In this document: positions 1,122 to 46,332 of the stretch, piece after piece
How the letters are laid out: every line of letters begins with the position of its first letter
How positions within the stretch are numbered: position 1 is the stretch's first letter
Assembly (NCBI GenBank): GCA_964386525.1
Contig: CAYLSO010000258.1
Coordinates: forward strand, 1-47,535
Length of the DNA: 47,535 nt
From: an uncultured bacterium
Lineage (GTDB): Bacteria > Eisenbacteria > RBG-16-71-46 > DASYSL01
Reading direction: 5' to 3'
Notes under the pieces: model-generated
Databases searched by the model: none
Told to the model about the DNA's origin: nothing
The model's input: only the letters and a program-made list of their open reading frames with translations
Translations under genes and position numbers: made by a program

Positions 1122-2084
1122 CTACTCCGTCACCACCGCTTTCGCCGTGACCACGGCTCCGCCCTGGATCAGCCGCACGAGGTACACCCCGGCGCGCAGC
1201 GCGCGCCCGGGCGCGAACTCCACCGAGTGGCGTCCGGCTCCCAGCGCACCCACGTCCTGACGCGCCACGCGGCGGCCGGTCACGTCCATCAGATCGAGCG
1301 TCGCCGGCCGGGCGGACGGCAGGGTGAAAGCCACCCGCACGGCGCCGCGCGACGGATTGGGCTGCACGCCCTCGAGCGTCAGCCCGAGCTTGGCAGCGGG
1401 CCCGTCCTCGACACCCACCTGGCAGTCCGTGTCGGTGGCGTCGTAGACCAGGTCCCCGTCGTTGTCCAGACCGCGGGTCGGGGCTACAAGACTCTCGGAG
1501 CCGTTCCCGTTGCAGGGGTCGGTAGGCTTGTTCGGGTGCGCCGCATCGGGGGTGAAGTAGTACAGCGGCTTCACCGTCTCCGGAGCGGTCGTGAAGTTGG
1601 CCGGGTTGGAATCCGTGTGGCAGCTCACGCACTGCGTGACGCCGGCGCGATAGTGATGCTGCCGCAGCCCGACCGCCTTGACCGCGCCACCCGCCGCCGG
1701 CTCCGCCCGCCCGTGGCAGCCGTTGCAGCTGATCGCCGCGAAGCCGGTCCCGCCGTCGGAACTGGCGAGCAGCACCGGAAAGCGCTGCGCTCCGTGGCAG
1801 ACGTTGCAGTCGCCGCCCAGCATGTCGGTGCGGTGGCCGTTGTGCAGGCTGGTGCCGCCCGCCCACGCCACGTCGTCGGAGTTCGACACGTAGCCGCTGG
1901 CCCGGAAGTCCCCGTGGCAGGCCGCGCAGTTGTCCGCCTGGTTCGTCGAGTACTGCTCGTAGGCGGCCGCCGGCGTCCAGAGGTAGCCGCCGATCGCCAC
2001 GGCGGCCAGCACGACCAGCGTGACTGCAGCCGCGGTCACGGTCAGCCCTGGGACGATTCTCTCCTTGTTGCAGATGCGCTCCAT
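1122..2084 (-). CDS. tetraheme c-type cytochrome with N-terminal signal/anchor and FlgD-Ig/T9SS-like C-terminal domain
   Basis: This is the C-terminal 320 aa of the 790-aa track ORF, starting at MERICNKERIVPGLTVTAAAVTLVVLAAVAIGG. It has four CxxCH motifs (CAACH, CNVCH, CNGCH, CVSCH) plus spare His pairs (HNGH, RQHH). A DNDGD acidic stretch follows. The terminal ~85 aa (QPNPSRGAVRVAFTLP...GVYLVRLIQ...) resemble the other C-terminal domains (CTDs) in this window. Confidence 0.85.
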   Translation of the reverse strand: MERICNKERIVPGLTVTAAAVTLVVLAAVAIGGYLWTPAAAYEQYSTNQADNCAACHGDFRASGYVSNSDDVAWAGGTSLHNGHRTDMLGGDCNVCHGAQRFPVLLASSDGGTGFAAISCNGCHGRAEPAAGGAVKAVGLRQHHYRAGVTQCVSCHTDSNPANFTTAPETVKPLYYFTPDAAHPNKPTDPCNGNGSESLVAPTRGLDNDGDLVYDATDTDCQVGVEDGPAAKLGLTLEGVQPNPSRGAVRVAFTLPSARPATLDLMDVTGRRVARQDVGALGAGRHSVEFAPGRALRAGVYLVRLIQGGAVVTAKAVVTE

Positions 2085-5347: not shown

Positions 5348-6064
5348 TTACCGGTGCGTCGCCTTCAGCTTGCCCCAGGTGGTGATCAAGGTCGGCACCG
5401 CGCAGTCGGCGTCGCTGCCGTCGTAGGTCGTGTCGCCGTCGTTATCGAGGCCCAGCGGCCCGGCCACCAGACTCTCCGCACCGTTCCCGTTGCAGGGATC
5501 CGTGGGCTTGTTGGGATGCGCCGCGTCCGGCGTGAAGTAGTACAGCGGCTTCACCGTCTCCGGGGCCACCGCGAAGCCCGCGGGATTCGCGTCCGAGTGG
5601 CAGTTGACGCACGCCGTCACCCCGGAGCGGTAGTGGTGCTGGCGCAGCCCGGTGCCCTTCACCGCGCCGCCGGCCGCAGGCTCGGCGCGCCCGTGGCAAC
5701 CGAGGCAGCTGATCGCCGCAAAGCCGGTCCCACCGACCGAGCTCTTCAACAGCACCGGGAAACGGGAGGCCGCGCTGTGGCAGACGTTGCAGTCACCGCT
5801 CAGCATGCTCGTCCGGTGCCCGTTGTGCAGGCTGGTGCCGCCCGTCCAGGCGACGCCGTCGGCGTTCGAGACGTAGCCGCTGGCCCGGAAGTCCCCGTGG
5901 CAGGCCGCGCAGTTGTCCGCCTGGTTCGTCGAGTACTGCTCGTAGGCTCCGGCCAGCCGGATGCTTCCCGCGGCGACGGCCAGAACGACGATCCCTGCCG
6001 CACCCAACGCCGTGGCGACCATCCCCCGCCGCGCACCGGCGGCGTGCCCGTATCGATCCCGCAT
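5348..6064 (-). CDS. tetraheme c-type cytochrome, paralog of 1122..2084, ending in a short TTWGKLKATHR tag instead of the CTD
   Basis: Has the same four CxxCH motifs (CAACH, CNVCH, CLGCH, CVNCH). Long stretches are nucleotide-identical to the first copy. The start at MRDRYGH has GGAGGA 5 nt upstream. Confidence 0.85.
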   Translation of the reverse strand: MRDRYGHAAGARRGMVATALGAAGIVVLAVAAGSIRLAGAYEQYSTNQADNCAACHGDFRASGYVSNADGVAWTGGTSLHNGHRTSMLSGDCNVCHSAASRFPVLLKSSVGGTGFAAISCLGCHGRAEPAAGGAVKGTGLRQHHYRSGVTACVNCHSDANPAGFAVAPETVKPLYYFTPDAAHPNKPTDPCNGNGAESLVAGPLGLDNDGDTTYDGSDADCAVPTLITTWGKLKATHR

Positions 6065-19506: not shown

Positions 19507-19515
19507 GTCCGTCCC

Positions 19516-21975: not shown

Positions 21976-22952
21976 GACGGCACCCCCACGGGCATGGTGC
22001 GCGGCGGCCGGAACCAGTTGTTGAGCGCCGGCGTCAGCGTGTTGCCGATGAGGATGGCGTAGCAGATGCCCTCGGGGTAGCCGCCGTAGACCCGGATCAG
22101 GCCGGTGAGCACCCCGACCACCAAGCCGAAGACGATCTGACCGTTGCGGGTCTTGGGCGAGGTGACGTAGTCGGTGGCCATGAAGAAGGCCCCGAGCCAC
22201 AGCCCGCCGCTCAGCAGGTGCAGGGCGCTGGCGCCGGTGAACGAGGTCACCAGGGCGACGCCGCCGATGACGCTCAGCGGGATGGTGGGCTTGATGATGT
22301 CGCGGATCAGAAGCACCAGCGCCCCCAGCCCCAGCATGGCCACCGAGACCTCGCCGATGGAGCCCGGGCGCAGGCCCATGATGAGGCTCACGTAGGGGCC
22401 GCCGGGCCCGCTCAGCAGCTGCATCGCCTTCTCCGGCCCCTGCTCGCGCAGCACCACCAGCGGCGTCGCCGTGGTCACCGCCTGCAGCTTGTCGCCGTAC
22501 CAGAGGCGCGGCCAGGCCCAACCGGTGGTCATGACCACCGGGAAGGTGGCGAGCATGAAGGCGCGCCCGATCATCGCCGGGTTGAAGAGGTTGTAGCCCA
22601 GGCCGCCGAAGATCATCTTGCCGAAGACGACGGCGAACGCCCCGCCGAGGGCCGCCTGCCAGGGGGCCACCAGCGGGGGCAGCGTCAGGGCCAGCAGCAA
22701 TCCGGTGCAGAACGCGCTGCCGTCGCGCAGCGAGCTGCGCGCCTTCATGGCCCGCGCCGCCAACCACTCCCCGATCAGGGCCCCGGCGACGGAGCCCACG
22801 ATCACCCACGCGGCGCGAGGGCCGAAGAGGAAAATCCCCCAGGCGCTGGCCGGCAGCAGCGCGCCGTTCACCCACCACATGATCTCCGCGGTGGAGGCCC
22901 CGGCGCGCACGTGCGGGCCCGGGGCGACGACGAAGCGGCGCTCCTCGCTCAT
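21972..22952 (-). CDS. rnfD: Rnf complex subunit D
   Basis: MSEERRFVVAPGPHVRAG...FNPAMIGRAF...GAFFMATDYVTSP... is the RnfD/NqrB pattern. The ATG overlaps the rnfC stop (ATGA at 22949-22952). Confidence 0.9.
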   Translation of the reverse strand: MSEERRFVVAPGPHVRAGASTAEIMWWVNGALLPASAWGIFLFGPRAAWVIVGSVAGALIGEWLAARAMKARSSLRDGSAFCTGLLLALTLPPLVAPWQAALGGAFAVVFGKMIFGGLGYNLFNPAMIGRAFMLATFPVVMTTGWAWPRLWYGDKLQAVTTATPLVVLREQGPEKAMQLLSGPGGPYVSLIMGLRPGSIGEVSVAMLGLGALVLLIRDIIKPTIPLSVIGGVALVTSFTGASALHLLSGGLWLGAFFMATDYVTSPKTRNGQIVFGLVVGVLTGLIRVYGGYPEGICYAILIGNTLTPALNNWFRPPRTMPVGVPS

Positions 22953-24298
22953 CCGGCCTTCACCTGGCGGGCCCGGCGCAGCGCCGACTTGGCGATCTGC
23001 ATGAACTGCAGGAGCGGGCGCTCCGCCGGGCAGACGTAGGTGCAGCAGCCGCACTCGTAGCAGTCGGTCGCGCCGAACGGGTCGGTGTCCAGGGTGCGCC
23101 CCGCCTCGACCCGCACCGACACCGCGTCGGGCTCGAGGCCGAGCGGGCACGCCTCGATGCATCGCCCGCACTGGATGCAGGGGTGGTAGCCCCCCTCGAG
23201 GGGGCCAGCGCCGGTGAGCAGCGTCAGCCCGTTCATGCCCTTGAGCAGCGGCAGGTCGAGGCGCGGCAGCGCCCGCCCCATCATCGGGCCGCCGGCCACC
23301 AGGCGGGTGGTGCCGTCGGCCATGCCGCCGCAGAAGCTCACCAGCTGGCTGAGCGGCGTGCCGAGCGGGGCGAGGACGTTCTTGGGGTCCAGGATGCCCG
23401 GGCCGGTGACCGTGATGACGCGGTCGAGCAGCGGCCGGCGGTAGCGCACCGCCTCGTACACCGCCTGTGCCGTGGCCACGTTCTGCACCAGAACGCCCAC
23501 CGCCAGCGGCAGGGCCCGCGCCGGCACCACGCGGCCGGTGAGCGAGGTCACCAGCTGGCGCTCGGCCCCCTGCGGGTAGCGCACCTCGCAGGGCACGACC
23601 TCCACGGGGAGGCCGCCGGGGATCTCCGCCGCGGCGCGCTCGAGCGGCTCTCTGGCCTCGAGCTTGTCGGCCTCGATGCCGATGAGCACGCGCCCGCCGC
23701 CGGTCAGCCGCGCCATGAGGCGCGCGCCCTCCACGACCTCGAGCGGGTGGGCGAGCATGGTGCGGAAGTCGGCGGTCAGGAACGGCTCGCACTCCGAGCC
23801 GTTGATGACCACGGTGTCGACGGTCGTGCCCTCGGGCAGGGCGAGCTTGCGGAAGGTCGGGAACGCCGCCCCACCGAGGCCGACGATGCCGGCCTCGCGG
23901 ATGCGCGCCAGCATCTCGTCGCGCGGGCAGTCGCGCCAGAGCGGGTCTCCGGGGAACGCCAGCGGCGGCGGGGCGTCGGCCGCCGCTTCGATCACCATCA
24001 TGGGCGCGTTGACGAGCGTCGGATGCGGGCGTTTCACCGTCGGCTTGACCCGCCCCGAAAGGCTGGCGTGCACCGGCACGCCGCCGGGGCCGGCCTCGGC
24101 GACCTTCTGGCCGCGCGCCACCAGGTCGCCCTTCTTGACGATCTCGGTGGCGGTGGCGCCGAAGCTCTCCACCAGGGGAAGCCACACCTCGCGCGGCGGC
24201 GGCACGAGCGGCTCGATGGGCTTGTGCGCGGTGCGCTCCTTGCCCGAATCGACGTGGACCCCGCCCTTGCCGAAGCTCCGCAGCTGGATGGCCTGCAT
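22949..24298 (-). CDS. rnfC: Rnf complex subunit C (NADH-binding, 2x[4Fe-4S])
   Basis: GIVGLGGAAFPTFRK and INGSECEPFLTAD are present, along with the two cluster motifs CIQCGRCIEACP and CYECGCCTYVCP. The start MQAIQL lies 5 nt after the apbE stop. Confidence 0.9.
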   Translation of the reverse strand: MQAIQLRSFGKGGVHVDSGKERTAHKPIEPLVPPPREVWLPLVESFGATATEIVKKGDLVARGQKVAEAGPGGVPVHASLSGRVKPTVKRPHPTLVNAPMMVIEAAADAPPPLAFPGDPLWRDCPRDEMLARIREAGIVGLGGAAFPTFRKLALPEGTTVDTVVINGSECEPFLTADFRTMLAHPLEVVEGARLMARLTGGGRVLIGIEADKLEAREPLERAAAEIPGGLPVEVVPCEVRYPQGAERQLVTSLTGRVVPARALPLAVGVLVQNVATAQAVYEAVRYRRPLLDRVITVTGPGILDPKNVLAPLGTPLSQLVSFCGGMADGTTRLVAGGPMMGRALPRLDLPLLKGMNGLTLLTGAGPLEGGYHPCIQCGRCIEACPLGLEPDAVSVRVEAGRTLDTDPFGATDCYECGCCTYVCPAERPLLQFMQIAKSALRRARQVKAG

Positions 24299-24303
24299 CC
24301 CGC

Positions 24304-25323
24304 CTACCCGATGAAGTGGGCCGCCCGCGCCCCGGCCCAGCCGCGGAAGCGGTCGGGCCCGAGCAGGAAGGCGACGGTGGAGAGCACGTCGGATTCCGTG
24401 CCGGTGGCAGCCAGGATGCTGACGGAGAGCGGCCCGTCGGCCGGCCGCCCGCGGCGGGCGTCGAGCAGGTGGCCCACCTCGCGCGCGCCCAGCGGATGGT
24501 GCTGCTCGGCGTTGCCGCTGGTGGCCACGGCGGCGTCGCGCAGGTGGAAGGTGCGGTCGATGCGGCCGGTGGCCGGGTGGAGCACGCCCACCGCCCAGCC
24601 CGCCGCGCCGTCCTCCGGCACGCCCAGGCCGTAGACGTTGCCGCCCACGTCCACCAGGCCCGACTCGATCCCCGCGGCGCGCAGCGCGGCGACGGCGCGG
24701 TCGAGGGCCCAGCCCTTGCCGATGGAGCCCAGGTCGAGGCCGGCGCCGGAGCGCGCCAGGCCGAGAGTGCCGGCCGAGCGGTCCGCCACCACGTGCGACC
24801 AGCCGGTGCGCGCCAGCGCGTCGGCGATCTCGCGGTCGGTGGGGAAGCGCCGGCGTCCGGAATCGTAGAAGCCGTAGAGGCGCATGAGCGGCAGCACGGT
24901 CGGGTCGTAGACGCCGCCGCTGGCGCGGGCCGCCGCCGCGGCGCGCTCCGCGACCCCGAGCAGCGCGGCGTCCACGCGCACCGCGCCGCGCCCCGCCGCG
25001 GCGTTGACGCGCGCCAGCTGGCTGTCGGCGCGGTGCAGGCTCATCTGGGCGTCCACCGCCCGCAACGCGGCGAACGCCCCGGCGATGGCGCGCTCCGCCC
25101 GCGCGGGATCGCCGCTGCGGGCCACCACCCGCACCCAGGTCCCGAGGGCCGGGCGACTGGCTTCCACGCTCGTCGGCCGGGCGCCGCGGTCGCGCAAGAA
25201 CAGCGGAGCCACGGCGCCGGCGCCGGCGAGCGCGCCGAGGCCGGCGAGGAAGCGGCGTCGGCTCAGCGAGTCGCCGGCCGGCTGGCGCCAAAGCAGACGC
25301 CGTAGCAATGTATTTGCTTCCAT
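24304..25323 (-). CDS. apbE: FAD:protein FMN transferase (ApbE), Tat-exported
   Basis: Contains a twin-arginine motif (SRRRFLAGLGALAGAGA) and the ApbE core (DPTVLPLMRLYGF...LDLGSIGKGWALDRA). A GGAGGG RBS lies upstream. It is the first gene of the rnf operon. Confidence 0.85.
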   Translation of the reverse strand: MEANTLLRRLLWRQPAGDSLSRRRFLAGLGALAGAGAVAPLFLRDRGARPTSVEASRPALGTWVRVVARSGDPARAERAIAGAFAALRAVDAQMSLHRADSQLARVNAAAGRGAVRVDAALLGVAERAAAAARASGGVYDPTVLPLMRLYGFYDSGRRRFPTDREIADALARTGWSHVVADRSAGTLGLARSGAGLDLGSIGKGWALDRAVAALRAAGIESGLVDVGGNVYGLGVPEDGAAGWAVGVLHPATGRIDRTFHLRDAAVATSGNAEQHHPLGAREVGHLLDARRGRPADGPLSVSILAATGTESDVLSTVAFLLGPDRFRGWAGARAAHFIG

Positions 25324-28295: not shown

Positions 28296-30293
28296 CTAGT
28301 CGCGCAGCCAGACCACGGTGCGCACCTCGCCGGCCGGGCGCCCGGCGACGAAGAGCCTCGCGAAGTAGACGCCGGGGGCCGCGGGGCGCCCGTCGGCGGC
28401 GGTCCCGTCCCAGATCACGGTGTGGCGTCCAGGCGGGTACGCGCCCTCGCCGAAGACCCGCACGCGCCGCCCGGCGACATCGTAGACGGCCACCTGGGCG
28501 GTCGCGCCGCGGCCGTGCTGCTGCCCGACGGCGAACTCGAAGCGCGCCGCGCCGCGCGCCGGGTTGGGCCACGGCGGGGCCAGGGCCGAGACCGCTCCGC
28601 TCAGCGGCTCGACGCCGACGTTGGGAGCCTCGAGGCCGCAGCCGTCCTGGTAGAAGAGGAAGACGAAGCCGCCCGAGGTGTCCCAGTCCCAGCCGCCCGA
28701 GGGGCCGACGCCGTCCGGCACGCGCGTGAAGCAGCTGTCCGGGAAGAACGTCGGCAGGCGCGACCAGCCCAGCTGGTCGATGCGCACCAGGCCGTTGGGG
28801 CGCTCCTCGTAGAGATCCACGCGGTCCTCTTCCTCGAACTCGAAGCTGATGGTGCCGTTCAGGCCGTGGTACACGGTGTACTTCTGCGCCGGCTCCAGCG
28901 GGATCGCGTCACCCGGCTGGAAGATCGGCTGGATGAGGTAGCCGTCGGAGATGCGGTAGGTGCGGACGTCCTTGATCGCCGGCGTCGGGTTGTAGAACTG
29001 CAGCGACTCGTTGAGCGGGTCGACGTCGCTGTTCAGCGGGTACACGTAGACCGAGTTGATGCGCGTGCTGCTGCCCAGGTCGGGCGGCGCGGCCTGGTTG
29101 GCGGCGTCCGGCGTGGGCGCGCCGATATTGAAATCGGCGCCGTCGTTGTTGGTGTCGTAGCCGTCCGGGAAGCGGTTGGTGCTCGTGGACAGGGTCTCCG
29201 GCTCGGCCACCCCCTGGTCCGGGTGCATCGCGCCGGGCGGGCTGCCGTCGTAGTCGAAGCCCGGGACGGCGCCGCCGAAGCCCGGCGGCCGCGAGTAGCC
29301 CGCCGGCACGACGATGGGGCAGGAGATGGGGGCGCTGCCGGCGTTGCCGTAGGCCACCTGGTCGATGACCTGGGCGCTGTCGTCCAAGAGCAGGATGATG
29401 CCGCCGGCGTCGAAGAGGAAGTCCTCTCCGACGGCGGCCGTGCCCTCGGTGCCGAAGACCCGCGGCCCGGCGAGGTAGTACTGGCAGTTGTAACAGAACT
29501 GGTCGAAGGTGCTGTCGGCCTGCGTCCCGAAACCCTCGGGCAGGAGGCTGTCGCCCGGCGCGAACTGCGAGAGGCTGACGGTCGAGTAGTCGCGGTTGAA
29601 GACCTGGATCGACCACCCGGTGAGGTCCACGGGAGCGCCGCTGACGTTGAGGATCTCCACGAACTCCACGTCCGGCGCCTGCGGGCGCACCAGGAACTCG
29701 TTGATCACCACCGGGGCGGTCTGCGGGGTAGGATTGTTCAGCGGGCTCTGCGGCAGCGACCCGATGGCCCCGCCGAAGTCCACTTCCCGACCGTGCTTGA
29801 TGGCGACGGCATTGGGGTGCTGGCCGGACAGCGAGGGCCGCACCGATGAGTAGAAGACGAAGCGCCCGCTGCCCGTCTCGCCGGTGTAGCAGCCGACCTC
29901 GAGAGGCTCGAACTTCACGGTCGCGCCCAGGGCGTCGAAGGGGATCGACGGGTCGGTCTTGCAGAGGAACTCGCCGCGGTAGTTGAGATTGCAGGACTGC
30001 CCGAAGTCGTCCTCACCGGTGGAGTACCCGGCGGGATACGGAAAGCGGACGGCCTCGCCGTTGCAAGTGTCGTTGAAGGCCGCCAGGTCGAGGAAGAGAT
30101 CGAGGTGCCCCAGATCGTGGCTCTCGAGCGACCAGGTCACGATCACCGTGTACTTGTAGAGCCCCTCGAACCCCGGATCCTGGCTGAACGCCACCGAGGA
30201 CGAAGCCTCGATGACATCCGCTGCCCGCGCCGGCGGGGCCAGGACCAGGAGGAGCGCGGCGCAGGATGCGGCGAGGAGAAGTAGCTTTCGCAT
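28296..30293 (-). CDS. secreted multidomain surface protein: unrecognised Cys-rich N-terminal domain + lamin-tail domains + FlgD-Ig/T9SS-like CTD
   Basis: The start MRKLLLLAASCAALLLVLAPPARA (signal peptide) has GGGAG upstream. The LTD signature is VINEFLVRPQAPDVEFVEILNVSGAPVDLTGWSI. The C-terminus is WPNPARGAARFEFAV...GVYFARLFVAG...VVWLRD. Confidence 0.85.
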   Translation of the reverse strand: MRKLLLLAASCAALLLVLAPPARAADVIEASSSVAFSQDPGFEGLYKYTVIVTWSLESHDLGHLDLFLDLAAFNDTCNGEAVRFPYPAGYSTGEDDFGQSCNLNYRGEFLCKTDPSIPFDALGATVKFEPLEVGCYTGETGSGRFVFYSSVRPSLSGQHPNAVAIKHGREVDFGGAIGSLPQSPLNNPTPQTAPVVINEFLVRPQAPDVEFVEILNVSGAPVDLTGWSIQVFNRDYSTVSLSQFAPGDSLLPEGFGTQADSTFDQFCYNCQYYLAGPRVFGTEGTAAVGEDFLFDAGGIILLLDDSAQVIDQVAYGNAGSAPISCPIVVPAGYSRPPGFGGAVPGFDYDGSPPGAMHPDQGVAEPETLSTSTNRFPDGYDTNNDGADFNIGAPTPDAANQAAPPDLGSSTRINSVYVYPLNSDVDPLNESLQFYNPTPAIKDVRTYRISDGYLIQPIFQPGDAIPLEPAQKYTVYHGLNGTISFEFEEEDRVDLYEERPNGLVRIDQLGWSRLPTFFPDSCFTRVPDGVGPSGGWDWDTSGGFVFLFYQDGCGLEAPNVGVEPLSGAVSALAPPWPNPARGAARFEFAVGQQHGRGATAQVAVYDVAGRRVRVFGEGAYPPGRHTVIWDGTAADGRPAAPGVYFARLFVAGRPAGEVRTVVWLRD

Positions 30294-30583
30294 GGGATAC
30301 TCCCGAGTCTCCGGATGGACACAACTGGACAGGGGCGCGGGACGGGCTCGGTCACGCGACGCCAAACACCACCTTGCGGGTCGGATAGACCACGACTGAG
30401 CTTAGGTCCGTCCGCGCAGTGGCGTCAATCGTCGTTTGTGCCGCGGCGGCTCCCGGGGCCCTCGGGCCGGCCCTGGGCCGCCCCTTTTCCCCGCGGCCGC
30501 CTTGCGGCAGCATGGGGGCGAGTGCGTGTCGCGCCCGGCTGCAGCGGTGGCCGTCGGTGCGCCGCGGGGAGCGACCCATCGCG

Positions 30584-33318: not shown

Positions 33319-33927
33319 ATGCGTACCTCGCTATCTCTGTGTTTGCTCGTTTGCGGCCTCGTGCTCGCCGTCGCCCAGCCCGCCGCCGCGCAGACGTGCG
33401 CCTCGGGGACGGTGACCGCCGTGTTCAACGCCGACCCCGCCTTCCCCGGCATGTGGAAGTACTGCGCCGAGGTGAGCTGGAGCTTCGACAAGTACCAGGT
33501 GTCTCACCTCACCACCTTCCTGTGGTTGCCCAACTGCGCTTGCATCTGCGATCCCCGCTTCATCCGGTTCGGCGACCCGGCCGGCCATTCGGTGAACACC
33601 TCCTCCGACCCCACCTGCGAGCTGGACTACTCCGGGGACTACGTGTGCACGGGCGACCCCTCGCTGCCCGACCAGTACAACGGCCCGGCGATCAAGTTCC
33701 TTCCCGAGTCCGATTTGGGCTGCGAGCCGGGGATCTCGGGTTACGGGACCTTCTGCTTCTACTCGCCGATGCCCCCGCAGGACCCCTCGGACGATCCGCA
33801 GGGCCTGGCGATCAAGCACGGCCAGCAGATCTGCTACGGGATGCTCTCCGGCCAGATGCCCAGCTGCGACTGCGCGCTGCCGACGCAGACGACGACCTGG
33901 GGCTCGCTGAAGGCTACGTACCGCTAG
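33319..33927 (+). CDS. small secreted Cys-rich protein: unrecognised domain shared with 28296..30293, ending in a TTWGSLKATYR tag
   Basis: GGAGGAGGA RBS, then the signal peptide MRTSLSLCLLVCGLVLAVAQPAAAQ. About 150 aa are colinear with the N-terminal domain of the LTD protein. The C-terminus is DCALPTQTTTWGSLKATYR. Confidence 0.8.
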   Translation: MRTSLSLCLLVCGLVLAVAQPAAAQTCASGTVTAVFNADPAFPGMWKYCAEVSWSFDKYQVSHLTTFLWLPNCACICDPRFIRFGDPAGHSVNTSSDPTCELDYSGDYVCTGDPSLPDQYNGPAIKFLPESDLGCEPGISGYGTFCFYSPMPPQDPSDDPQGLAIKHGQQICYGMLSGQMPSCDCALPTQTTTWGSLKATYR

Positions 33928-33973: not shown

Positions 33974-34110
33974 CGCACAGGGGCGCGGCGCCTGAGGACC
34001 TCCTCCCTCGGCGCGCGCCCCGACTCTTTGCGGCGACCTTGCCGGCGGCCCCGCGCCGGCGGGGCACCGCGCCTTGCCCCCGAGACCCTTCCGCCGCTAG
34101 GCTCCGCCCC

Positions 34111-36882
34111 GTGAACCCATCGACCTCTCCGCTTACCAATCCCTACGAGCCGGCCGGCGATTTCGCGGCCGAAGCCGCCGCCCTCGACGCCGGGCGCCTC
34201 GAGGAACTCGACGCCTGGGCCGCCGGCATGGCCCGCCATCCGCAGGGCGGCGAGTGGCACAAGCGCGGCGAGCGGCGGCTGGCCGAAAACCAGGCCGGAG
34301 CGCAGGCCCAGTACGCGCACGCCGCGCTGCTGGAGGCGCAGGGCGAGCGGGCCGAGGCGGCGCGGCTCCTGGTGGGCTTGTGCGAGCGCCTGGCGCAGGC
34401 CGCGGCCTGGCCGGCGGTCGCACTCGTGGCCCGCCGCGCCCTGCGTGCCGAGGCCGGGCCGCCCGCGGCCCGCTGGCTGGTGCACGCCGCCGACGAGACC
34501 GGCGGCGAGGACGAGCGCTTCGAGGCGCTGATCGAGGCCCACGAGGCCGCCCCCGGAGAGGCCCGTCTGGCGTGGCGCCTCTCCCGCCAGTACGAGGCGC
34601 GTGGCGAGCGCGAGAGCGCTCTCGACGCCACCGGCCGCGCCCTCGACGCGCTCGCCCGCCGGCACGACGCCGAGGGCATGGAGGAAGCCCTTCTCAGCCT
34701 GCTCGACGAGAGCGATCCCGCCTACCTGCGGTTGGCGCTGCCGCCGCTGCCGCTGTTCGCCAAGGGCGGCGAGGCGGAGCGCGTGGCGGGCTTCCTCGAG
34801 CTCTCCTGGCCGGCCCTGCGCGCCGCGGGACTGGCGGGCGCGACCTGGCAGACGCTGCGCGCCATGCTGCTCGACCTGGCCGAGCCGGGCGGCCTCGTGG
34901 CGCTGGTGCCCGAGGTGGTCGAGGCCGCCCTGCCCCAGGGAGCCGCCGCTCGCGCCCTGCTCGAGGACGCCGGCTACGGCGCCGATCCCGCGGCATCGTG
35001 GCTGCCGCTCTTCGAGCGCCTGCTGCCGTTCGTGCCGGGTGCCTACGCGGAGCACGGCTCGTGGGGCGTCGGCCGCGTCTCGAGCTTGACGCGCGAGGAG
35101 GTCTGGATCGATTTCCCCGGCCGCCCCGGCCACCGCATGACCCTGCGCGGTGCGCACCAGGCACTCGTCCCGCTCGACCCCGAGGACCTCGCGGTGCTCG
35201 CCGCGTGGCAGGCCGACCGGCTGGCGGAGCTGCGCGCCGCCGACCCCGTGGACCTGATCGTGCGAGCCCTGCGGCGGCTGGGCGGCGACGCCGCCGGCGC
35301 CGATCTCAAGAAGTTGCTCGTGCGCTACGCCGTACCGGAGACGGAGTGGACCGCCTTCTGGAACGCCGCCCGTTCCCGCCTCCCCGCCGACCCGCGGGTC
35401 GACGGCAGCGCGGCTTATCGCGGCCGCTACCGGCTCATCGCGGCAGGGCCGGGAGCGCCCGCCGGCGCCATCGAGCCGGCAGTGCCGCTGCCCCGCTTCG
35501 ACCGCGGCGCCGACGCGCGCCAGGTGCTGACCACGCTGCGCCGGTTCCTCGCGCAGCATCCGGACGAGGCGGTGCGGCTGGCGCAGGAGCGCGGCTCCGT
35601 GCTGCGCGCCTGGCGCGACGACCCGGCGCTGGCATGGCGCGAGCGCGTCGGGGCCCTGCTCGTGCTCGCCATCGTCGCCGACGCGGAATCGGCGGCCGCC
35701 GCGCCCGCCGTGCTGGCGCGCGCCCTGGCCGACGGCTTCGATCCGCGCGAGCTGCCTTCGGGGCCGGAGCAGCGGCAGACCATCGAGTGGGGCCTGGCCT
35801 CGGCCGAGTGGGAGGCCGCGGTGCGCTCCGGCATCGCCGCGCGCTTCACCGACGTCAAGGATCTCGCCTTCGAGAGCCTCCTGGCGCGCCTGGGCGAGGG
35901 CGCCGGCGGGTTCCTCACCACCCTGGCCCGTCGCGCCGTGGAGTGGCCCGACGCCGCGCTGGCCGTCCTCGAGCGCGCGTACGGCGTCCGCGCCCCGGCG
36001 CGGGGCGCCGGCGCGGGCCCCGGCGGCTTCCCGGCCCTGGATCCGTGGGAGTCGGCGTGCGGCCTCGCGGAGCTGCTCGAGAGCGGGCCCGGGCCACAGC
36101 GCGTGAAAGCCGGGCTGCCCCTGCTCGCCACCGACGGGCCGCTGGCGCTCGCCGCCGCCGCGGCCGTCCCCGGCGCCGAGACGCGGGCCCGCATCGAGCG
36201 GCTGCTGCTCGGCTGGCGCGGCAGCGACCGCTCGCTGCTCCCCTTCCTCGAATGGGCGGAGACCGCCGGACTGGCCGACTTCGCGGCCCGAGTGCGGGAG
36301 AAGCGCCACATGGCCGCCCGCGCCATCACCGCCAACAGCGGCAAGGTGGAAGCGCACGAGCTGCCCCGTATCTTCCTGACGCGGGCGACGCTGCTACGCC
36401 TGCGGCGCGAGGCCAAGGGCCTCGACCAGGCGCTGCGCGGCGAGATCCCGGTCGCCATCCAGAAGGCACGCGAGCTGGGAGACCTGCGCGAAAACGCCGA
36501 GTACGAATCGGCGAAGCTCAAGCAGCGGCAGACGCAGGCGCGGCTCGCCCAGCTCGGGGCCAGGCTCGCCAACGTCTCGGTCATCGACGATCTCGACCGC
36601 CCGCCCGGCGTCGCCGGCCTCGGCACCGAGGTCGAGCTCGAACTGCCGGACGGCGGCTCGCGGCGCCTCTGGATCCTGGGCGAGGGCGACGACCGGCTCG
36701 GCCCCGAGGTGGTCTCCTACCTCGCCCCGCTCGGCCGCGCGCTGCTCGGCAAGCGCCCCGGCGACGCGGTGGAGCTGCCCGGCGACGGCGCGGCGCACTC
36801 GGCCGTCGTGCGCGCCGTGCGGCCGCGCTTGCCCGAGCCCGGCGATCCGGCGGCGGGCAGCGCCGCGCCGACCGCGGCGTGA
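34111..36882 (+). CDS. large GreA/GreB-family protein (~920 aa) with long N-terminal extension
   Basis: The last ~160 aa are GreA-like: LTRATLLRLRREAKGLDQALRGEIPVAIQKARELGDLRENAEYESAKLKQRQ..., followed by an FKBP-like C-domain (VSYLAPLGRALLGKRPGDAVELP). The N-terminal ~750 aa are helical-repeat-like, with a CarD/TRCF-RID-like stretch (HGSWGVGRVSSLTREEVWIDFPG). The start is uncertain: GTG 34111 or TTG 34039. Confidence 0.7.
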   Translation: MNPSTSPLTNPYEPAGDFAAEAAALDAGRLEELDAWAAGMARHPQGGEWHKRGERRLAENQAGAQAQYAHAALLEAQGERAEAARLLVGLCERLAQAAAWPAVALVARRALRAEAGPPAARWLVHAADETGGEDERFEALIEAHEAAPGEARLAWRLSRQYEARGERESALDATGRALDALARRHDAEGMEEALLSLLDESDPAYLRLALPPLPLFAKGGEAERVAGFLELSWPALRAAGLAGATWQTLRAMLLDLAEPGGLVALVPEVVEAALPQGAAARALLEDAGYGADPAASWLPLFERLLPFVPGAYAEHGSWGVGRVSSLTREEVWIDFPGRPGHRMTLRGAHQALVPLDPEDLAVLAAWQADRLAELRAADPVDLIVRALRRLGGDAAGADLKKLLVRYAVPETEWTAFWNAARSRLPADPRVDGSAAYRGRYRLIAAGPGAPAGAIEPAVPLPRFDRGADARQVLTTLRRFLAQHPDEAVRLAQERGSVLRAWRDDPALAWRERVGALLVLAIVADAESAAAAPAVLARALADGFDPRELPSGPEQRQTIEWGLASAEWEAAVRSGIAARFTDVKDLAFESLLARLGEGAGGFLTTLARRAVEWPDAALAVLERAYGVRAPARGAGAGPGGFPALDPWESACGLAELLESGPGPQRVKAGLPLLATDGPLALAAAAAVPGAETRARIERLLLGWRGSDRSLLPFLEWAETAGLADFAARVREKRHMAARAITANSGKVEAHELPRIFLTRATLLRLRREAKGLDQALRGEIPVAIQKARELGDLRENAEYESAKLKQRQTQARLAQLGARLANVSVIDDLDRPPGVAGLGTEVELELPDGGSRRLWILGEGDDRLGPEVVSYLAPLGRALLGKRPGDAVELPGDGAAHSAVVRAVRPRLPEPGDPAAGSAAPTAA

Positions 36883-42716: not shown

Positions 42717-43673
42717 TCAGCAGCAGGCGCTCGGGGAGCCGGGCGCGGGCCGCGCCGCAGCGCCCCCCGTCACGCACACGTCCGGCACCACCGGCCGCCG
42801 GCCGGAGAGCACCTGCCACCAGCGCACGCCGGCCTCCACCAGGACCAGGGCCATGCAGGTCATCATGATCGCAGTGAGGGTCGCGTTGAGGCCGCCCTGG
42901 AAGGCCTGGCCCGGATCTCCAGCGGTGAGCCTGGGCAAGTAGTTGTCGCGGATGGACAGGAAACCGGCGGTCTGCGTGATGGCCGTCACGCCGACCAGCG
43001 GCACCGCGGTCACCCACGCGTAGCGCGCGCCCCCCGAGTTGATCAGAATCGTGGTGCCGACGGTGAGCGCCACGCCCGCCAGCAGCTGGTTGGCGATGCC
43101 GAACATCGGCCAGATGGTGCTGATCGAGCCGGTGAGGATGAAGTACGTCCAGCCGCCGCATACCAGCAGGCTGGCGACCGCCGCGCCCGGAAGCCAGTCG
43201 GTGCGCCCGAGCGGCTTGTGCACGCGCCCGGCCTCCTCTTGCAGGATGAAGCGCGCCACGCGCGTGCCGGCGTCGATGGTCGTGAGGATGAAGAGCGCCT
43301 CGAACATGATGGCGAAGTGGTGCCAGTAGCCCATCAGACCGCGCATGCCGGGGATGCCCGAGAAGATCTGCGCCATGCCCACGGCCAGCGACACCGCCCC
43401 GCCGGTGCGCCCGGCCAGCGTCTCCCCCACCTCGGCCTGCAGCTCCGCCAGGTTCACCGGCACGAGCCCCAGGGCGGCGAACTTCTCCGGCGTCACGTTG
43501 ATGGCGAAGTAGTCGGCCGGGTGCAGCGAGGTGGCGTCGATGAGCGCCATGACGCCGACCACGCCCTCGCACAGCATGGCGCCGAAGCCGATCGGCCGCG
43601 CGTCGCTCTCGCGGTCCAGCATCTTGGGCGTGGTGCCCGAGCCGACCAGCGAGTGGAAGCCCGAGATGGCCCC
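42717..43673 (-). CDS. cstA: carbon starvation protein CstA, C-terminal part (in frame with 43674..44582, downstream of an in-frame TGA)
   Basis: It reads [34 protein letters not shown]...[26 protein letters not shown]...[14 protein letters not shown], colinear with E. coli CstA. The track ORF begins at the internal Met at 43622. Confidence 0.85.
43620..43668 (-). other. stem-loop immediately downstream of the cstA in-frame UGA (candidate SECIS-like element)
   Basis: The outer stem pairs CAUCUCGGGC with GCCCAAGAUG (one mismatch). The inner stem closes a GGUC tetraloop at 43647-43644, which is 27-30 nt after the UGA. It was folded by eye only, and GC-rich RNA forms hairpins easily. Confidence 0.3.
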
Positions 43674-44582
43674 TCAGGCGATGGTGATGAAGAGGAAGGG
43701 GAAGAGCGGCCCCGGGACGATCGGCCCGCCGCCGGCGGCGTACTCGGTCACCGCCGGCATCTTGAGTACGGGGTTCACCAGGCAGACGCCGAGCGCCAGC
43801 AAGGCGATGGTGCCGAGCTTCATGTAGGTCGAGAGGTAGTCGCGAGGGGCCAGCAGCAGCCACACCAGCAGCACCGAGGCCACGAAACCGTAGGCCGCCA
43901 TGGCCAGGGTGAGCTGCGTCTTGCCGAGGGTGAAGACGGCGCCGAGCGGCGTCTGCGGGATCCAGCGGCCGAGGATCACGCAGGCCATCATCGCGAGCAC
44001 CCCGGCCACCGTGGCCTCGGCGACGCGGCCGGGCCGCAGGCGGTGCATCCACAGCCCCATCGCCACCGCGATGGGGATCGACATGGCGACGGTGAACGTG
44101 CCCCACGAGGACTCGCGCAGGGCGTTGACCACCGCCAGCCCGAGGCCGGCCAGGGCGATGACCACGATGAACAGGATGGCGACGGCGGCGAGGACGTAGG
44201 CGCGCGGCGAGATCTCGCTGCGCGCGAGCTCGGCCAGGGAGCGGCCGTCGCGCCGCGTGCTGGCCACCAGGATGGTGAAGTCGTGCACGGCGCCGGCCAC
44301 CACCACGCCGACGACCAGCCAGGCGAGGCCGCGGAAGCAGCCGAACTGCGCCGCCAGCACCGGCCCGATGAGCGGCCCGGCCCCGGTGATGGCCGCGAAG
44401 TGGTGCCCGAAGAGCACCCAGCGACCGGTCGGGTAGTAGTTCTGGCCGTCGTAGAGGCGGTGCGCCGCGGTGCGGCGCGCGTCGTCGAGCACGAGCACCC
44501 GGGCCGCCAGGAAGGCGCTGTAGTAGCGGTAGGCCAGGGTGAGGACTGCGGCCACCACGAGGACCACGAAGAGGCCGCTCAC
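43674..44582 (-). CDS. cstA: carbon starvation protein CstA, N-terminal part ending at an in-frame TGA (43674-43676) that replaces the conserved Cys
   Basis: The start is GTG with GGAGGA 8 nt upstream. VLFGHHFAAITGAGPLIGPVLAAQFG...LLLAPRDYLSTYMKLGT...LFPFLFITIA-TGA matches E. coli ...FPFLFITIACGAVSGFH. Confidence 0.85.
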   Translation of the reverse strand: MSGLFVVLVVAAVLTLAYRYYSAFLAARVLVLDDARRTAAHRLYDGQNYYPTGRWVLFGHHFAAITGAGPLIGPVLAAQFGCFRGLAWLVVGVVVAGAVHDFTILVASTRRDGRSLAELARSEISPRAYVLAAVAILFIVVIALAGLGLAVVNALRESSWGTFTVAMSIPIAVAMGLWMHRLRPGRVAEATVAGVLAMMACVILGRWIPQTPLGAVFTLGKTQLTLAMAAYGFVASVLLVWLLLAPRDYLSTYMKLGTIALLALGVCLVNPVLKMPAVTEYAAGGGPIVPGPLFPFLFITIA

Positions 44583-45114: not shown

Positions 45115-46332
45115 TCAGCGGAGCAGCAGGATACGGCGGGCCGCGGCCGTGCCGCCGGCCGTCAGGCGGACGACGTAGACGCCCGGGGCCGCCCGCGCCC
45201 CCGAGGCCTCCCGGCCGTCCCACACCGCCGCGTGGGCCCCGGCCGCCCGGCGCCCGCGCGCCAGTTGGGCGACGCGCCGGCCGGAGACGTCGTAGACCGA
45301 CAACGCGACGTCGGCGGCCGCCGGCAGCTCGTAGCGCACGGCGGTGGCGGCCGTGAAGGGATTGGGCACGTTCGCCAGCAGGCGCACCCGCGCCGCGCCG
45401 TCGGGCTGGTCCACGGCGATGCCGGGCGCGGACGCCGGATCGAACACCACGACGTCGTAGGCGAAGGTCCGCGGCGCGCCGCCCACGCGCACGTTGCTGA
45501 GCGCGACGTGGTAGCGCACGTCGCGCGCCGGCTTGCTGCCCGAGTAGTCGAGGACGGTCCAGCAGAGCGTGTTGTCCCCGTAACCGTTGGCGACGGTCTC
45601 GAGGCGCACGGGGGCCGCCGCGCCGTCCCGGGTGAGCGCCACGGCGGCGGCCGAGAAGTCCGCACCGGGGTACGAGAACGACCACAGCGCGCCGGCCGTC
45701 TGGTACGGGACGTAGCCGGCGGGCGGCCAGGCCACCCACTCGGGCGCCGGCGGCCGCGCGCCGGCCCCGCCGATGACCCACAGATCGTACGCCGGGTAGC
45801 TGTTCCCGAAGGTCGCCCCCACCCCCATCGTCTGCTGCGGCGGGTAGAGGATCCAGCGCCGGTGGCCGGCCGAGGGCACGCCGCCGTCGAGGATCCAGCC
45901 CGTCACGGCGGCCGGCAGCGTGGCGTAGCCGCCGGCCAGATTGGACTTGCCCGCCGCCTCGGCGCCGCCCGCCGTGTAGCAGGTCCAGGAAGCCGGCGGC
46001 GAGTGCGAGAGCTGCCGGTTGGCGGTCATCATCAGGGCGGCGTCCTGGCACTTGGCGTTCCAGTCGGCGCGCAGCGCCACGTCCGACGGCAGCCCTGCCA
46101 TAGCGCGGAAGTAGGCGAGGCGCCGCAGTCCGGCGTCCCGGTACGCGGCGGAGACGTCACCCGCCGCGCACGCCGCGTAGTTGCCGCTGAAACCCGAGGG
46201 CACGCCCTCGGAGGCCAGGTAGACGCTGTCGAAGAGCGCCGCCACGGCGCCGCGGTCCTGCGTGTCCACGGTGAGGGCGCGCGCGGGAGCGGCGAGGAGG
46301 AGAAGGACGGCGGCGGCGGTGAGGTATCGCAC
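45115..46332 (-). CDS. secreted CAP/SCP (PR-1/YkwD-like) domain protein with FlgD-Ig/T9SS-like CTD
   Basis: A signal peptide (RYLTAAAVLLLLAAPARA) is followed by an SCP-like core (RRLAYFRAMAGLPSDVAL...AALMMTANRQLSHSPP...GHRRWILYP). The C-terminus is NVPNPFTAATAVRYELP...GVYVVRLTAGG. The start codon is GTG. Confidence 0.65.
   Translation of the reverse strand: MRYLTAAAVLLLLAAPARALTVDTQDRGAVAALFDSVYLASEGVPSGFSGNYAACAAGDVSAAYRDAGLRRLAYFRAMAGLPSDVALRADWNAKCQDAALMMTANRQLSHSPPASWTCYTAGGAEAAGKSNLAGGYATLPAAVTGWILDGGVPSAGHRRWILYPPQQTMGVGATFGNSYPAYDLWVIGGAGARPPAPEWVAWPPAGYVPYQTAGALWSFSYPGADFSAAAVALTRDGAAAPVRLETVANGYGDNTLCWTVLDYSGSKPARDVRYHVALSNVRVGGAPRTFAYDVVVFDPASAPGIAVDQPDGAARVRLLANVPNPFTAATAVRYELPAAADVALSVYDVSGRRVAQLARGRRAAGAHAAVWDGREASGARAAPGVYVVRLTAGGTAAARRILLLR

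Follow-up and report, generated by a model that had tools for sequence, protein, structure and literature searches.

Which proteins a bacterium displays or releases is predicted chiefly from their C-terminal sorting signals. Small C-terminal sorting domains have been characterised by eight attributes (10.1101/2023.06.07.544157, section 5), which include a strongly hydrophobic transmembrane (TM) segment (attribute 4), a basic cluster (attribute 5), an N-terminal signal peptide in most carriers (attribute 6), carriers that are otherwise unrelated (attribute 7), and homologues with other sorting signals or none (attribute 8). WGxxGxxG-CTERM (NF038039), a putative sorting signal that is still an orphan, is described as resembling this tripartite, TM-containing architecture (Haft, 10.1101/2023.06.07.544157). 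The T9SS type A C-terminal domain (CTD) folds into a β-sandwich of 60-100 aa that contains motifs B, D, and E (PMC11285876, PMC11969387), and T9SS is known only from the FCB superphylum (PMC12421860). To our knowledge, no short C-terminal sorting signal without a TM helix has been described, and within this superphylum the only TM-less signal known is the large domain of T9SS. Short hydrophilic terminal peptides that are found on unrelated cargo and read by a soluble receptor are represented by PTS1 (SKL-COOH/Pex5), the secretin S-domain with its pilotin, and encapsulin cargo-loading peptides. Here, a tail of ~19 residues is described that is likely to serve Eisenbacteria and allied FCB-superphylum lineages as a new C-terminal signal, free of any TM segment, for sorting or anchoring. 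Its function is inferred; there is no experimental evidence of localisation or processing.

Two proteins encoded in the window (the whole 47.5-kb stretch of DNA that was analysed, probably from Eisenbacteria) end in this tag. The first, at 33319..33927 (+), is a 202-aa exported Cys-rich β-sandwich protein with a signal peptide at approximately residues 1-24 (33319-33390) and the C-terminus ...SCDCALPTQTTTWGSLKATYR-stop; its tag module, DCALPTQTTTWGSLKATYR, comprises residues 184-202 and, with the TAG stop, occupies 33868..33927 (+). The same gene is also called in near-identical contigs, where the synteny is unchanged. The second, at 5348..6064 (-), is a 238-aa tetrahaem c-type cytochrome (Pfam Cytochrom_c3_2 and Paired_CXXCH_1) with the C-terminus ...DADCAVPTLITTWGKLKATHR-stop, in which the tag module, DCAVPTLITTWGKLKATHR, comprises residues 220-238 and, with the TAA stop, occupies 5348..5407 (-). 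An acidic 'GLDNDGDxxYDxxDxDC' repeat lies N-terminal of the tag in the cytochrome, and the NCBIfam model acid_disulf_rpt matches residues 205-222 at 21 bits, below its cut-off of 41. When the two proteins are compared by BLASTP, only the last 19 residues align, 14 of them identical (E 3e-7), and both N-termini are signal-peptide-like (MRTSLSLCLLVCGLVLAVAQPAAA/Q and ...GIVVLAVAAGSIRLAGA/YEQ). Thus, the claim of a sequence-only reading of the window, that two unrelated secreted proteins with N-terminal signal sequences share a 19-residue tail, has held. In the six frames of the window, WGx[LIVMF]Kxx[YFHW][RK]-stop is found only at these two proteins, and a degenerate DNA pattern for the tag matches twice, against 0.00 matches expected.

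Such a resemblance could be non-functional, a product of chance, of a DNA repeat common to the two genes, of a gene-conversion tract, or of the conserved edge of a structural domain. In favour of this explanation, the window itself shows only two copies, whose DNA has 78% identity over 123 nt. The DNA of the two tags differs at synonymous sites and in the choice of stop codon. Against this explanation, not one of 100 shuffles of the window gave even a single match. Furthermore, a degenerate DNA scan of species-representative genomes, which gives no measure of prevalence or of the exact taxonomic range, has revealed at least 126 terminal tag matches in 117 loci outside the window. The next codon was TAA, TAG, or TGA in 126 of these 126 matches and never TGG, which was allowed as a control. 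Among the 3189 ORFs of the 117 loci, the relaxed motif was present 126 times one residue before the stop and 6 times internally, the latter being approximately the chance expectation. All but one of the 126 DNA 33-mers are distinct, the wobble positions vary, and the GC content of the loci ranges from 0.43 to 0.74; this points to selection at the level of the protein. In addition, the passenger folds are unrelated, and the tag is predicted to sit outside the passenger fold. In the AlphaFold model of the Cys-rich protein (pLDDT 82.6, with a weak CBM3-like fold match), the β-sandwich stops at approximately residue 181 and is followed by a coil (182-193) and a short, low-confidence helix (194-201). 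The confidence over the tag is low, since the block-mean pLDDT falls from 94 (171-180) to 70 (181-190) and 54 (191-200) and is 47 over the tail, and the prediction rests on this protein only; the model of the tagged cytochrome (pLDDT 42) was not usable, presumably for lack of haems. The sequence-only reading would have been refuted by a motif limited to the two window proteins or by a tag that proved to be the edge of a structural domain, and neither is the case. Non-functional resemblance is thus virtually ruled out.

The carriers are mostly from Candidatus Eisenbacteria, with some from Krumholzibacteriota, Latescibacterota, Gemmatimonadota, Zixibacteria, and 'Fibrobacteraceae' metagenome bins (MAGs); these taxa are the labels of the MAGs, some of which are clearly mislabelled or mis-binned. 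No Bacteroidota carrier was found in the scan despite the heavy representation of that group among the genomes, the sole Saprospiraceae match being an ORF of 17 aa. Besides the two copies in the 47.5-kb window, at least some 24 MAGs have 2-5 matches, with up to 5 in one MAG, in a scan that was strict and partial. A search of a 5.8-billion-protein index with a 42-aa profile containing the tag gave 376 candidates and 3 matches, which is no gauge of prevalence. The tag is therefore a widespread, strictly C-terminal, and portable module of Eisenbacteria and allied uncultured phyla.

The module has the consensus C-x(0-2)-P-[VT]-P-[TVA]-x-x-[ST]-T-W-G-x-[IVL]-K-[AS]-L-Y-R-COOH. It consists of a Cys, present in many carriers, with which the passenger domain closes (at -18 to -20 in 72 of 117 carriers), a Pro-rich linker of fixed length, P-[VT]-P-[TVA]-x-x-[ST], and a terminal decapeptide, T-W-G-x-[IVL]-K-[AS]-L-Y-R-COOH. 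Positions -17 to -14, which were left free by the DNA search, are nevertheless dominated by P, [VT], P, and [TVA]. In 27 homologues of the Cys-rich protein that were collected without constraint on the tag, down to 47% identity, W, G, K, and Y never vary, and the conservation of T and R is at least 90%. Across the two focal families, variants of the form [ST]-W-[GS]-x-[ILVM]-K-x-x-[YF]-[RKHEQ] with 0-4 extra residues were also seen.

Signal peptides were called by a strict rule; a more permissive heuristic flagged 48% of the controls. By the strict rule, 86 of 120 tagged ORFs have a signal peptide versus 23 of 154 conserved control ORFs (Fisher p 3.7e-22), an enrichment that had been put forward as a check on the sequence-only reading; the same rule finds one in 9 of 14 ORFs with a T9SS CTD. 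The carriers, which have the NCBI product name 'hypothetical protein', are diverse: in 108 of them, 24 different Pfam families were found, and the mean pairwise identity of the carriers is ~20%. Their passenger domains include LTD, β-helix/NosD, NHL, PMP repeats, CHRD, CBM20, M10 protease, and plastocyanin. In NCBIfam, carriers match families that are named for other anchors, namely choice-of-anchor V/L/Y, ExeM-GG (GlyGly-CTERM), the ScyF PEP-CTERM protein, and MYXO-CTERM families. For the tag itself, no covering Pfam or NCBIfam model was found in a scan of 3 window proteins and the 108 carriers, the tag profile has no match among PDB sequences, and no paper describing the tag was found in the literature searched (the motif; sorting, T9SS, or secretion in Eisenbacteria; choice-of-anchor).

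The junction that bears the tag can also be occupied by other signals. In the window, a paralogous tetrahaem cytochrome of 320 aa (1122..2084, -) is 76% identical to the tagged cytochrome through residue 223 (...DTDCQV) and diverges afterwards; instead of the tag, it carries a T9SS type A/FlgD_ig-like sorting domain at residues 242-318 (approximately nt 1131-1361; TIGR04183, 29.3 bits, cut-off 23). In a neighbour-joining (NJ) tree, the clade of this paralogue is the sister of the tagged cytochrome clade. Within the cytochrome family, the C-termini include 36 tags, 28 T9SS CTDs, and 7 tails with Cys/PEP, a TM segment, and Arg, among other endings; individual homologues end in a dockerin-type (PF00404) or SLH (PF00395) domain, and the NJ tree of the family requires at least 20 changes of C-terminal type. 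For the Cys-rich family, an exhaustive profile search yielded 225 representatives, and the C-termini were typed in the best 150, of which at least 88 have the tag, ~9 a FlgD_ig/T9SS-type CTD, and ~11 a PEP-CTERM-like tail that replaces the tag directly after ...LPxC. Thus, in both focal families, the tag alternates with T9SS CTDs or PEP-CTERM-like tails at one junction. The sequence-only reading, which had noted the divergence of the cytochrome paralogue after ...DTDC and its FlgD-Ig/T9SS-like domain, and had regarded the tag and the large CTD as interchangeable C-terminal modules, was correct on each point, and the interchange extends to the Cys-rich family as well as the cytochromes.

When measured against the eight attributes of small C-terminal sorting domains, the tag meets 1, 2, 3, 6, 7, and 8, so that its carriers mostly have signal peptides, are otherwise unrelated, and have homologues with other sorting signals or none. 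For attributes 1-3, the observations are the strictly terminal position with internal matches only at chance level, the several copies per genome, and the invariant residues with the conserved P-x-P linker. The tag does not meet attributes 4 and 5; consequently, the analogy to the classical sorting signals is functional rather than structural. Like PEP-CTERM/exosortase, LPXTG, GlyGly-CTERM, MYXO-CTERM, and PGF-CTERM, the tag lies at the extreme C-terminus, is present in several copies per genome, is borne by unrelated proteins with signal peptides, and is replaced in homologues by other anchors. There is also a likeness to PEP-CTERM in that both are Pro-rich after a Cys (C-x-[IV]PEP... versus C-x-P-[VT]-P-[TV]...). 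However, unlike the tripartite CTERM signals, the tag has neither a TM helix nor an Arg cluster, its invariant residues are located at the end of the module rather than at its start, and no cognate enzyme is known. No hydrophobic stretch or TM segment is present in the tag (on the Eisenberg hydrophobicity scale, the last 10 residues average -0.12), and in place of the 2-5 basic residues of an Arg cluster, there is a single terminal Arg and one Lys at -5. The earlier description of the tag as lacking a hydrophobic helix and differing in this from PEP-CTERM, LPXTG, and GlyGly-CTERM has therefore held. As with WGxxGxxG-CTERM, the tag is a putative sorting signal known only from comparative genomics, for which no sorting enzyme has been found; NF038039 was not among the NCBIfam matches of the window proteins or the 108 carriers.

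The type A CTD of T9SS provides another comparison, since it is likewise a TM-less C-terminal signal of Sec-exported proteins in the FCB superphylum, is present in the same genomes, and is swapped with the tag between close paralogues. The tag might then be a minimal or alternative T9SS entry signal, in which PorV/SprA or a lineage-specific adaptor reads the decapeptide instead of a CTD of 60-100 aa. In support of this idea, almost all labelled carriers come from FCB-superphylum lineages, and FlgD_ig/T9SS-type cargo is encoded in 23 tag-bearing loci and by 4 genes in the window. The latter include a cargo protein with LTD and a FlgD_ig CTD (28296..30365, -), which shows that one genome uses the large CTD signal and the tag in parallel, and further T9SS-type cargo genes at 14038-15321 and 45115-46332 (both -). 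The abundance of CTD cargo in these loci is only indirect evidence that the host genomes encode the T9SS core (SprA/Sov, PorV, GldKLMN). No T9SS core gene or sortase-like gene is present in the window. However, several results argue against the idea. Unlike the T9SS CTD (TIGR04183/PF18962), the tag consists of 10 conserved residues and a linker, ~19 aa in all, for which the model shows coil and a short helix. TIGR04183 or PF18962 matches neither any of the 108 carriers nor either tagged window protein, and motifs B and D are missing from the tag, whereas even the 'short' CTDs of Prevotella keep B, D, and E, spread over some 60 positions of the alignment (PMC11969387). With a PSSM of the last 9 residues built from 36 co-resident CTDs, CTDs score +10.2 bits, tags -18.4, and control C-termini -17.1; consequently, the tag is no mimic of the last CTD strand. 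In addition, the scan yielded no Bacteroidota carrier, and the parallel presence of tagged and CTD-bearing paralogues in one genome suggests that the two have different fates. A T9SS entry signal thus remains possible, but it is not the preferred reading.

It is also conceivable that the tag anchors its carrier in the envelope by itself, without any sorting machinery, acting as a short amphipathic peptide on a membrane leaflet, LPS, or peptidoglycan, or forming a cross-link like that of Braun lipoprotein (...YRK-COOH). Comparable cases are Lpp, which has ...KYRK at its end, and PBP5, with its C-terminal amphipathic helix. The aromatic and basic character of the tail (net charge ~+1.9 over the last 20 residues), the short helix that AlphaFold places in it, and the lack of a partner gene nearby would all suit such an anchor. 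However, the last 10 residues have a hydrophobic moment (0.45 at 100 degrees) that is not distinguishable from that of shuffled tails (0.36 +/- 0.17), the mean hydrophobicity is negative, and the terminal residue is Arg versus Lys in Lpp. Lipid-binding helices can drift considerably in sequence, whereas W, G, K, and Y of the tag are invariant in register with the stop across families, down to 47% identity. Furthermore, CBM20, protease, nuclease-like LTD, and choice-of-anchor passengers point to the exterior, and passage through the outer membrane would be needed. A self-sufficient anchor is consequently judged to be unlikely. A strongly amphipathic membrane helix was rejected, as the moment does not exceed that of the shuffled controls. 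The BAM β-signal and the Braun lipoprotein C-terminus resemble the tag in being C-terminal aromatic/basic motifs of envelope proteins, but the likeness extends to no more than two or three residues. The β-signal was rejected as well: the passengers are β-sandwiches, β-helices, propellers, and cytochromes, with no β-barrels, and the tag ends in Arg rather than Phe, Tyr, or Trp.

The preferred reading, a TM-less sorting or anchoring signal, can be given as a series of steps. First, the carrier would be exported by Sec, as its signal peptide implies. The passenger would then fold and leave the linker and decapeptide exposed, a step for which the AlphaFold model provides support. A dedicated soluble periplasmic or outer-membrane receptor, as yet unidentified, would bind the decapeptide together with the free carboxy terminus; its gene would lie elsewhere in the genome, such that one receptor could serve many cargoes. 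Finally, the receptor would pass its cargo on for export at the outer membrane or attachment to the surface, perhaps with cleavage in the P-x-P linker. Because the tag has no TM segment, it cannot be retained in the inner membrane for processing by a membrane-embedded enzyme of the sortase, exosortase, rhombosortase, or myxosortase type. By analogy, the logic of recognition may be nearer to that of CTD-PorV, secretin S-domain-pilotin, or PTS1-Pex5. PTS1, the secretin S-domain, and the encapsulin peptides operate in other compartments and organisms and have no sequence relation to the tag, and any likeness to them would be one of mechanism alone. The destination is inferred to be most probably the cell surface or the exterior, because the passenger families use surface anchors elsewhere; for the cytochrome or plastocyanin passengers, it is possible that the protein is retained in the periplasm.

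A search for the machinery in the gene neighbourhoods has revealed no partner. All-against-all clustering of the 3189 ORFs revealed no recurrent non-carrier neighbour gene in the 117 loci, and when 113 flanking ORFs were scanned with Pfam, only T9SS-type cargo, Ser/Thr kinases at approximately background frequency, and the synteny of orthologues were seen. Thus, neither the window nor the neighbourhoods of the 117 loci yielded a candidate for the receptor or for a processing enzyme. The suggestion of the sequence-only reading that the tag is a distinct sorting, anchoring, or processing signal is supported, but with no partner gene found, the sorting function itself stays an inference. One further alternative is that the tail serves maturation or turnover rather than location, as a C-terminal pro-peptide or degron for a periplasmic tail-specific (PDZ) protease. 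The strict dependence on a free C-terminus would suit recognition by a PDZ or tail-specific protease, and the fixed P-x-P linker is a potential cleavage site. However, the tag fills the slot of bona fide sorting signals in two families, there is no obvious reason why dozens of unrelated secreted proteins in one genome, enzymes and binding proteins alike, should share a degron, and S41 or PDZ proteases are not enriched near carriers. This explanation is regarded as highly improbable.

A bolder version of the sorting hypothesis can also be considered. In this version, the tag would be the address for a previously unrecognised diderm export or anchoring pathway in which a dedicated receptor with PTS1-like logic reads a hydrophilic peptide of roughly 10 residues and its free carboxy terminus and routes Sec-exported proteins, dozens in each genome, to the surface, independently of T9SS, of T2SS plus a sortase, and of the tripartite CTERM signals, and which would be a hallmark of Eisenbacteria, Krumholzibacteriota, Latescibacterota, and relatives. 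The balance of the evidence falls a little short of favouring so specific a pathway.

Under the more modest reading, the tag offers a bait for an unknown receptor or processing enzyme, which could be sought by phylogenetic profiling, and a simple tag HMM could be added to annotation pipelines. The presence of the tag on only one of two near-identical tetrahaem cytochromes suggests that the paralogues are sent to different envelope locations, which would be relevant to the organisation of extracellular or periplasmic electron transfer in these organisms. Eisenbacteria, Krumholzibacteriota, Latescibacterota, and their relatives are abundant in soil, sediment, and wastewater. If the tag is indeed a sorting signal, then the surface proteomes of these lineages are currently mis-predicted.

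The Cys-rich protein (33319-33927, + strand; 202 aa) and the tetrahaem cytochrome (5348-6064, - strand; 238 aa) end in ...SCDCALPTQTTTWGSLKATYR-stop and ...DADCAVPTLITTWGKLKATHR-stop, respectively, and their BLASTP alignment comprises only the last 19 residues, 14 of which are identical. When all six frames of the window (47,535 bp, 73% GC) are searched, WGx[LIVMF]Kxx[YFHW][RK]-stop is found at only two sites, the tagged genes themselves. The matching degenerate DNA pattern likewise gives 2 matches vs 0.00 expected, with no match in any of 100 dinucleotide-preserving shuffles, and the DNA of the two tags differs at synonymous positions and in the stop codon. A paralogous cytochrome (1122-2084, - strand) is 76% identical to the tagged one up to ...D-x-D-C-x-V (residue 223); beyond this point, it carries a T9SS type A sorting domain (CTD; TIGR04183, 29.3 bits with a cut-off of 23), and FlgD_ig is also matched. 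The sequence-only reading had described these two tails and the diverging paralogue, and in the six-frame search, BLASTP, and the TIGR04183 match, it held in every detail. The 19-residue extent that it proposed also held, agreeing with the module deduced from carrier conservation.

A scan of one genome per prokaryotic species with the pattern ACN TGG GGN NNN NTN AAR NNN NNN TAY CGN TRR returned at least 126 matches in at least 117 DNA stretches. The scan contains its own control, as TRR admits TGG (Trp) besides the three stop codons; the last codon is TAG in 66 matches, TGA in 43, TAA in 17, and TGG in none. Of the 126 DNA 33-mers, 125 are distinct; with variable wobble positions and a locus GC between 0.43 and 0.74, this places the conservation at the protein level. 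Furthermore, a relaxed motif sought in the 3189 ORFs of the 117 loci has 126 occurrences that end one residue short of the stop and only 6 internal ones, about the chance number. Among 27 homologues of the Cys-rich protein, down to 47% identity, all 27 end in TWGxLKxxYR-stop, with W, G, K, and Y invariant. Positions that the search left free are also conserved in the carriers: P-[VT]-P-[TVA] at -17 to -14, S or T at -11, I, V, or L at -6, A or S at -4, L at -3, and a Cys at -18 to -20 in 72/117. The module can consequently be written C-x(0-2)-P-[VT]-P-[TVA]-x-x-[ST]-T-W-G-x-[IVL]-K-[AS]-L-Y-R-COOH. Broader family searches show that T->S, G->S, Y->F/H, and replacement of the last R by K, H, E, Q, or N are tolerated, as are 1-4 additional, often acidic, residues. 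The tag is a terminal, portable element under strong purifying selection.

By record title, the 117 loci belong to Candidatus Eisenbacteria/Eiseniibacteriota (46), unclassified 'bacterium' (43), Krumholzibacteriota (6), 'uncultured Fibrobacteraceae' (5), Latescibacterota (4), Gemmatimonadota (3), Poribacteria (2), and Zixibacteria (1), with 7 odd labels, mostly short contigs and including one 17-aa chance ORF. At least ~24 MAGs have 2-5 tags each. Tagged genes lie on MAG contigs labelled Limnocylindria, Polyangiaceae, Verrucomicrobiia, Acidobacteriota, and Phycisphaera (L022, L109, L032, L056, L090, L105); since several of these are short, mis-binning or mislabelling is likelier than a wider range. 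Two Poribacteria chromosomes (L002:292-966, L084:318-983) encode orthologous 220-aa secreted proteins that end in ...KGKAATTWG[ST]LKKAYR-stop and have no P-x-P linker; this may be the same signal occurring beyond the FCB group or a coincidence within one orthologue. One Eisenbacteria MAG (L003:1222-6244) has three tandem right-handed beta-helix (NosD-like) paralogues, all three of which have a signal peptide and tag of their own. Three database 'proteins' of 54-63 aa that end in the tag (P0148-P0150) appear to be truncated gene calls of a tagged family of ~280-300 aa present in L020 and L102.

A classic signal peptide is present at the N-terminus of nearly all complete carriers. Under a strict rule, used in the same way for tagged and control ORFs, 86/120 tagged ORFs pass vs 23/154 conserved controls (p 3.7e-22), as do 9/14 T9SS-CTD proteins; a looser heuristic flagged 48% of controls. 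Thus, on the basis of their N-terminal sequences, carriers are Sec-exported. Their Pfam passenger domains are mutually unrelated: LTD (9), beta-helix/NosD (7), NHL, PMP repeats, CHRD, CBM20, matrixin, reprolysin-like, and plastocyanin. NCBIfam places several carriers in families whose defining anchor is a different one (choice-of-anchor V, L, and Y, ExeM-GG, the ScyF PEP-CTERM protein, and two MYXO-CTERM-linked families). The carriers have no Pfam or NCBIfam family in common, and consequently these libraries contain no model of the tag.

AlphaFold2, given the Cys-rich family alignment (mean pLDDT 82.6), predicts a beta-sandwich to about residue 181, coil at 182-193, and a short helix at 194-201, with block-mean pLDDT falling toward the C-terminus from 94 to 70, 54, and 47. 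The tag lies outside the fold and is not an edge strand of the Cys-rich domain, as far as a model with low pLDDT over the tag can show it. The passenger weakly resembles CBM3-type sandwiches (TM about 0.4). The model of the tagged cytochrome failed (pLDDT 42). Given the shuffled-window, stop-codon, and structural results, the explanation that the tag is a chance or structural artefact is all but excluded.

The 120 best matches of a cytochrome-family search have in common the haem core and an acidic 'GLDNDGDxxYDxxDxxC' repeat and differ at the C-terminal end: 36 have the tag, 28 a FlgD_ig/T9SS CTD, 9 a choice-of-anchor-D-type domain, 7 a Cys/PEP-TM-Arg tail, a few a dockerin-type domain, one an SLH domain, and the remainder other endings. 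A neighbour-joining tree built from the cores shows at least 20 switches of C-terminal type, and the clade of the window's tagged cytochrome is sister to that of its CTD paralogue. An exhaustive profile search gave 225 Cys-rich representatives; in the best 150, 88 have the tag by a strict rule, plus several close variants, about 9 proteins of 600-800 aa end in a T9SS-type CTD, and in about 11 a PEP-CTERM-like tail (...[IV]PEP-TM-RRR) starts directly after the same ...LPxC junction. Given these alternating endings, both families behave as 'choice-of-anchor' passengers, and the tag alternates with bona fide surface-sorting signals. That it is instead a degron or a pro-peptide is very unlikely.

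Other endings recur in the cytochrome family. In some homologues of 5348-6064, such as P0109 and P0131, the tag is replaced at the same junction by a second short TM-less ending, C-x-[VI]-P-V-E-L-M-x-F-E-I-E-stop, whose start, 'C-x-VPVE', is common to tags such as ...DCLVPVEPTTWGAIKAIYATR; it might be another unannotated terminal signal. A third, ...F-x-DGFETGDTSRWSxxxP-stop, occurs in P0087, P0091, P0115, P0120, P0127, and P0142.

Haft set out eight attributes of small C-terminal sorting domains (10.1101/2023.06.07.544157, section 5). The tag meets six (location, multiplicity, invariant residues, signal peptides, unrelated carriers, and alternative anchors in homologues) but lacks the transmembrane segment and Arg cluster; consequently, it is signal-like in working, yet outside the tripartite class. 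The tag was rejected as a T9SS CTD, since 0 carriers match CTD models. A PSSM built from the final nine residues of 36 co-resident CTDs gives +10.2 bits for CTDs, -18.4 for tags, and -17.1 for control C-termini; this result also opposes a CTD variant, as does the fact that even 'short' Prevotella CTDs retain motifs B, D, and E across roughly 60 alignment positions (PMC11969387). The tag might still feed into T9SS through a lineage-specific adaptor, but this is unlikely, as CTD models, motifs, and the PSSM all find it unlike a CTD. A lipid-binding amphipathic helix is unconvincing: tag tails have a hydrophobic moment of 0.45, shuffled tails one of 0.36 +/- 0.17, and the mean hydrophobicity of the tag tails is below zero. 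A machinery-free envelope anchor is very unlikely for the same reasons.

The genes flanking both tagged window genes look unconnected to the tag: PBP1A, a GreA-domain fusion protein, and glucokinase beside the Cys-rich gene; acyl-CoA dehydrogenase, an SDR, a Ser/Thr kinase with TPR repeats, and an ORF that is taken to be an M3-type peptidase, with no domain search behind it, beside the cytochrome. An S9 peptidase and four FlgD_ig/T9SS-type cargo genes lie elsewhere in the window. Apart from genes whose recurrence reflects synteny of orthologues, only T9SS-type cargo (in 23 of the 117 loci) and Ser/Thr kinases (in 9, by a rough estimate about background) recur as non-carrier neighbours. When 113 flanking ORFs were scanned against Pfam for a partner, no family appeared in more than 4. 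A receptor or enzyme, if one exists, would be encoded elsewhere, in a one-to-many arrangement like that of most sorting systems.

Other features of the window may be recorded. The stretch 16869-25323 (- strand) encodes a 2-oxoacid:ferredoxin oxidoreductase (TPP-binding and POR/POR_N subunits), a 4Fe-4S ferredoxin-type protein, two Rnf/Nqr membrane subunits, and ApbE, with RnfC adjoining this cluster in related contigs; together with a di-haem peroxidase (12203-13252, - strand), it is read as a respiratory/electron-transfer context for the paired cytochromes. CstA (carbon-starvation protein) is split into ORFs at 42717-43622 and 43674-44582 (both - strand; Pfam positions 2-303 and 322-560), and is a single 621-aa protein in two near-identical contigs (L118, L119), so a frameshift or assembly error is likely. 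An LTD + FlgD_ig cargo protein (14038-15321, - strand; CTD residues 312-374) continues for ~50 aa after '...VWLR', perhaps through a lost stop codon or frame error; its paralogue (28296-30365) ends '...VWLRD' without the extension. The GreA fusion (34039-36882, + strand; 947 aa) has a long N-terminal extension and GreA/GreB N- and C-terminal domains at its end, an architecture kept in related contigs, where the predicted protein has 923 aa and matches HTH_GRAD.

Taken together, the tag is likely a sorting or anchoring signal, although this function is inferred. In this model, the free C-terminal decapeptide would be read by a soluble periplasmic or outer-membrane receptor, which would route the tagged protein to the surface or exterior, perhaps with cleavage in the P-x-P linker. 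NCBI annotates carriers as hypothetical proteins, and no description of the motif was found in the literature searched. C-terminal sorting tags as such are already known; what is new, on the literature, Pfam, and NCBIfam searched, is a short one without a TM segment and with an unidentified reader. The pathway behind it has a substantial chance of being new as well.
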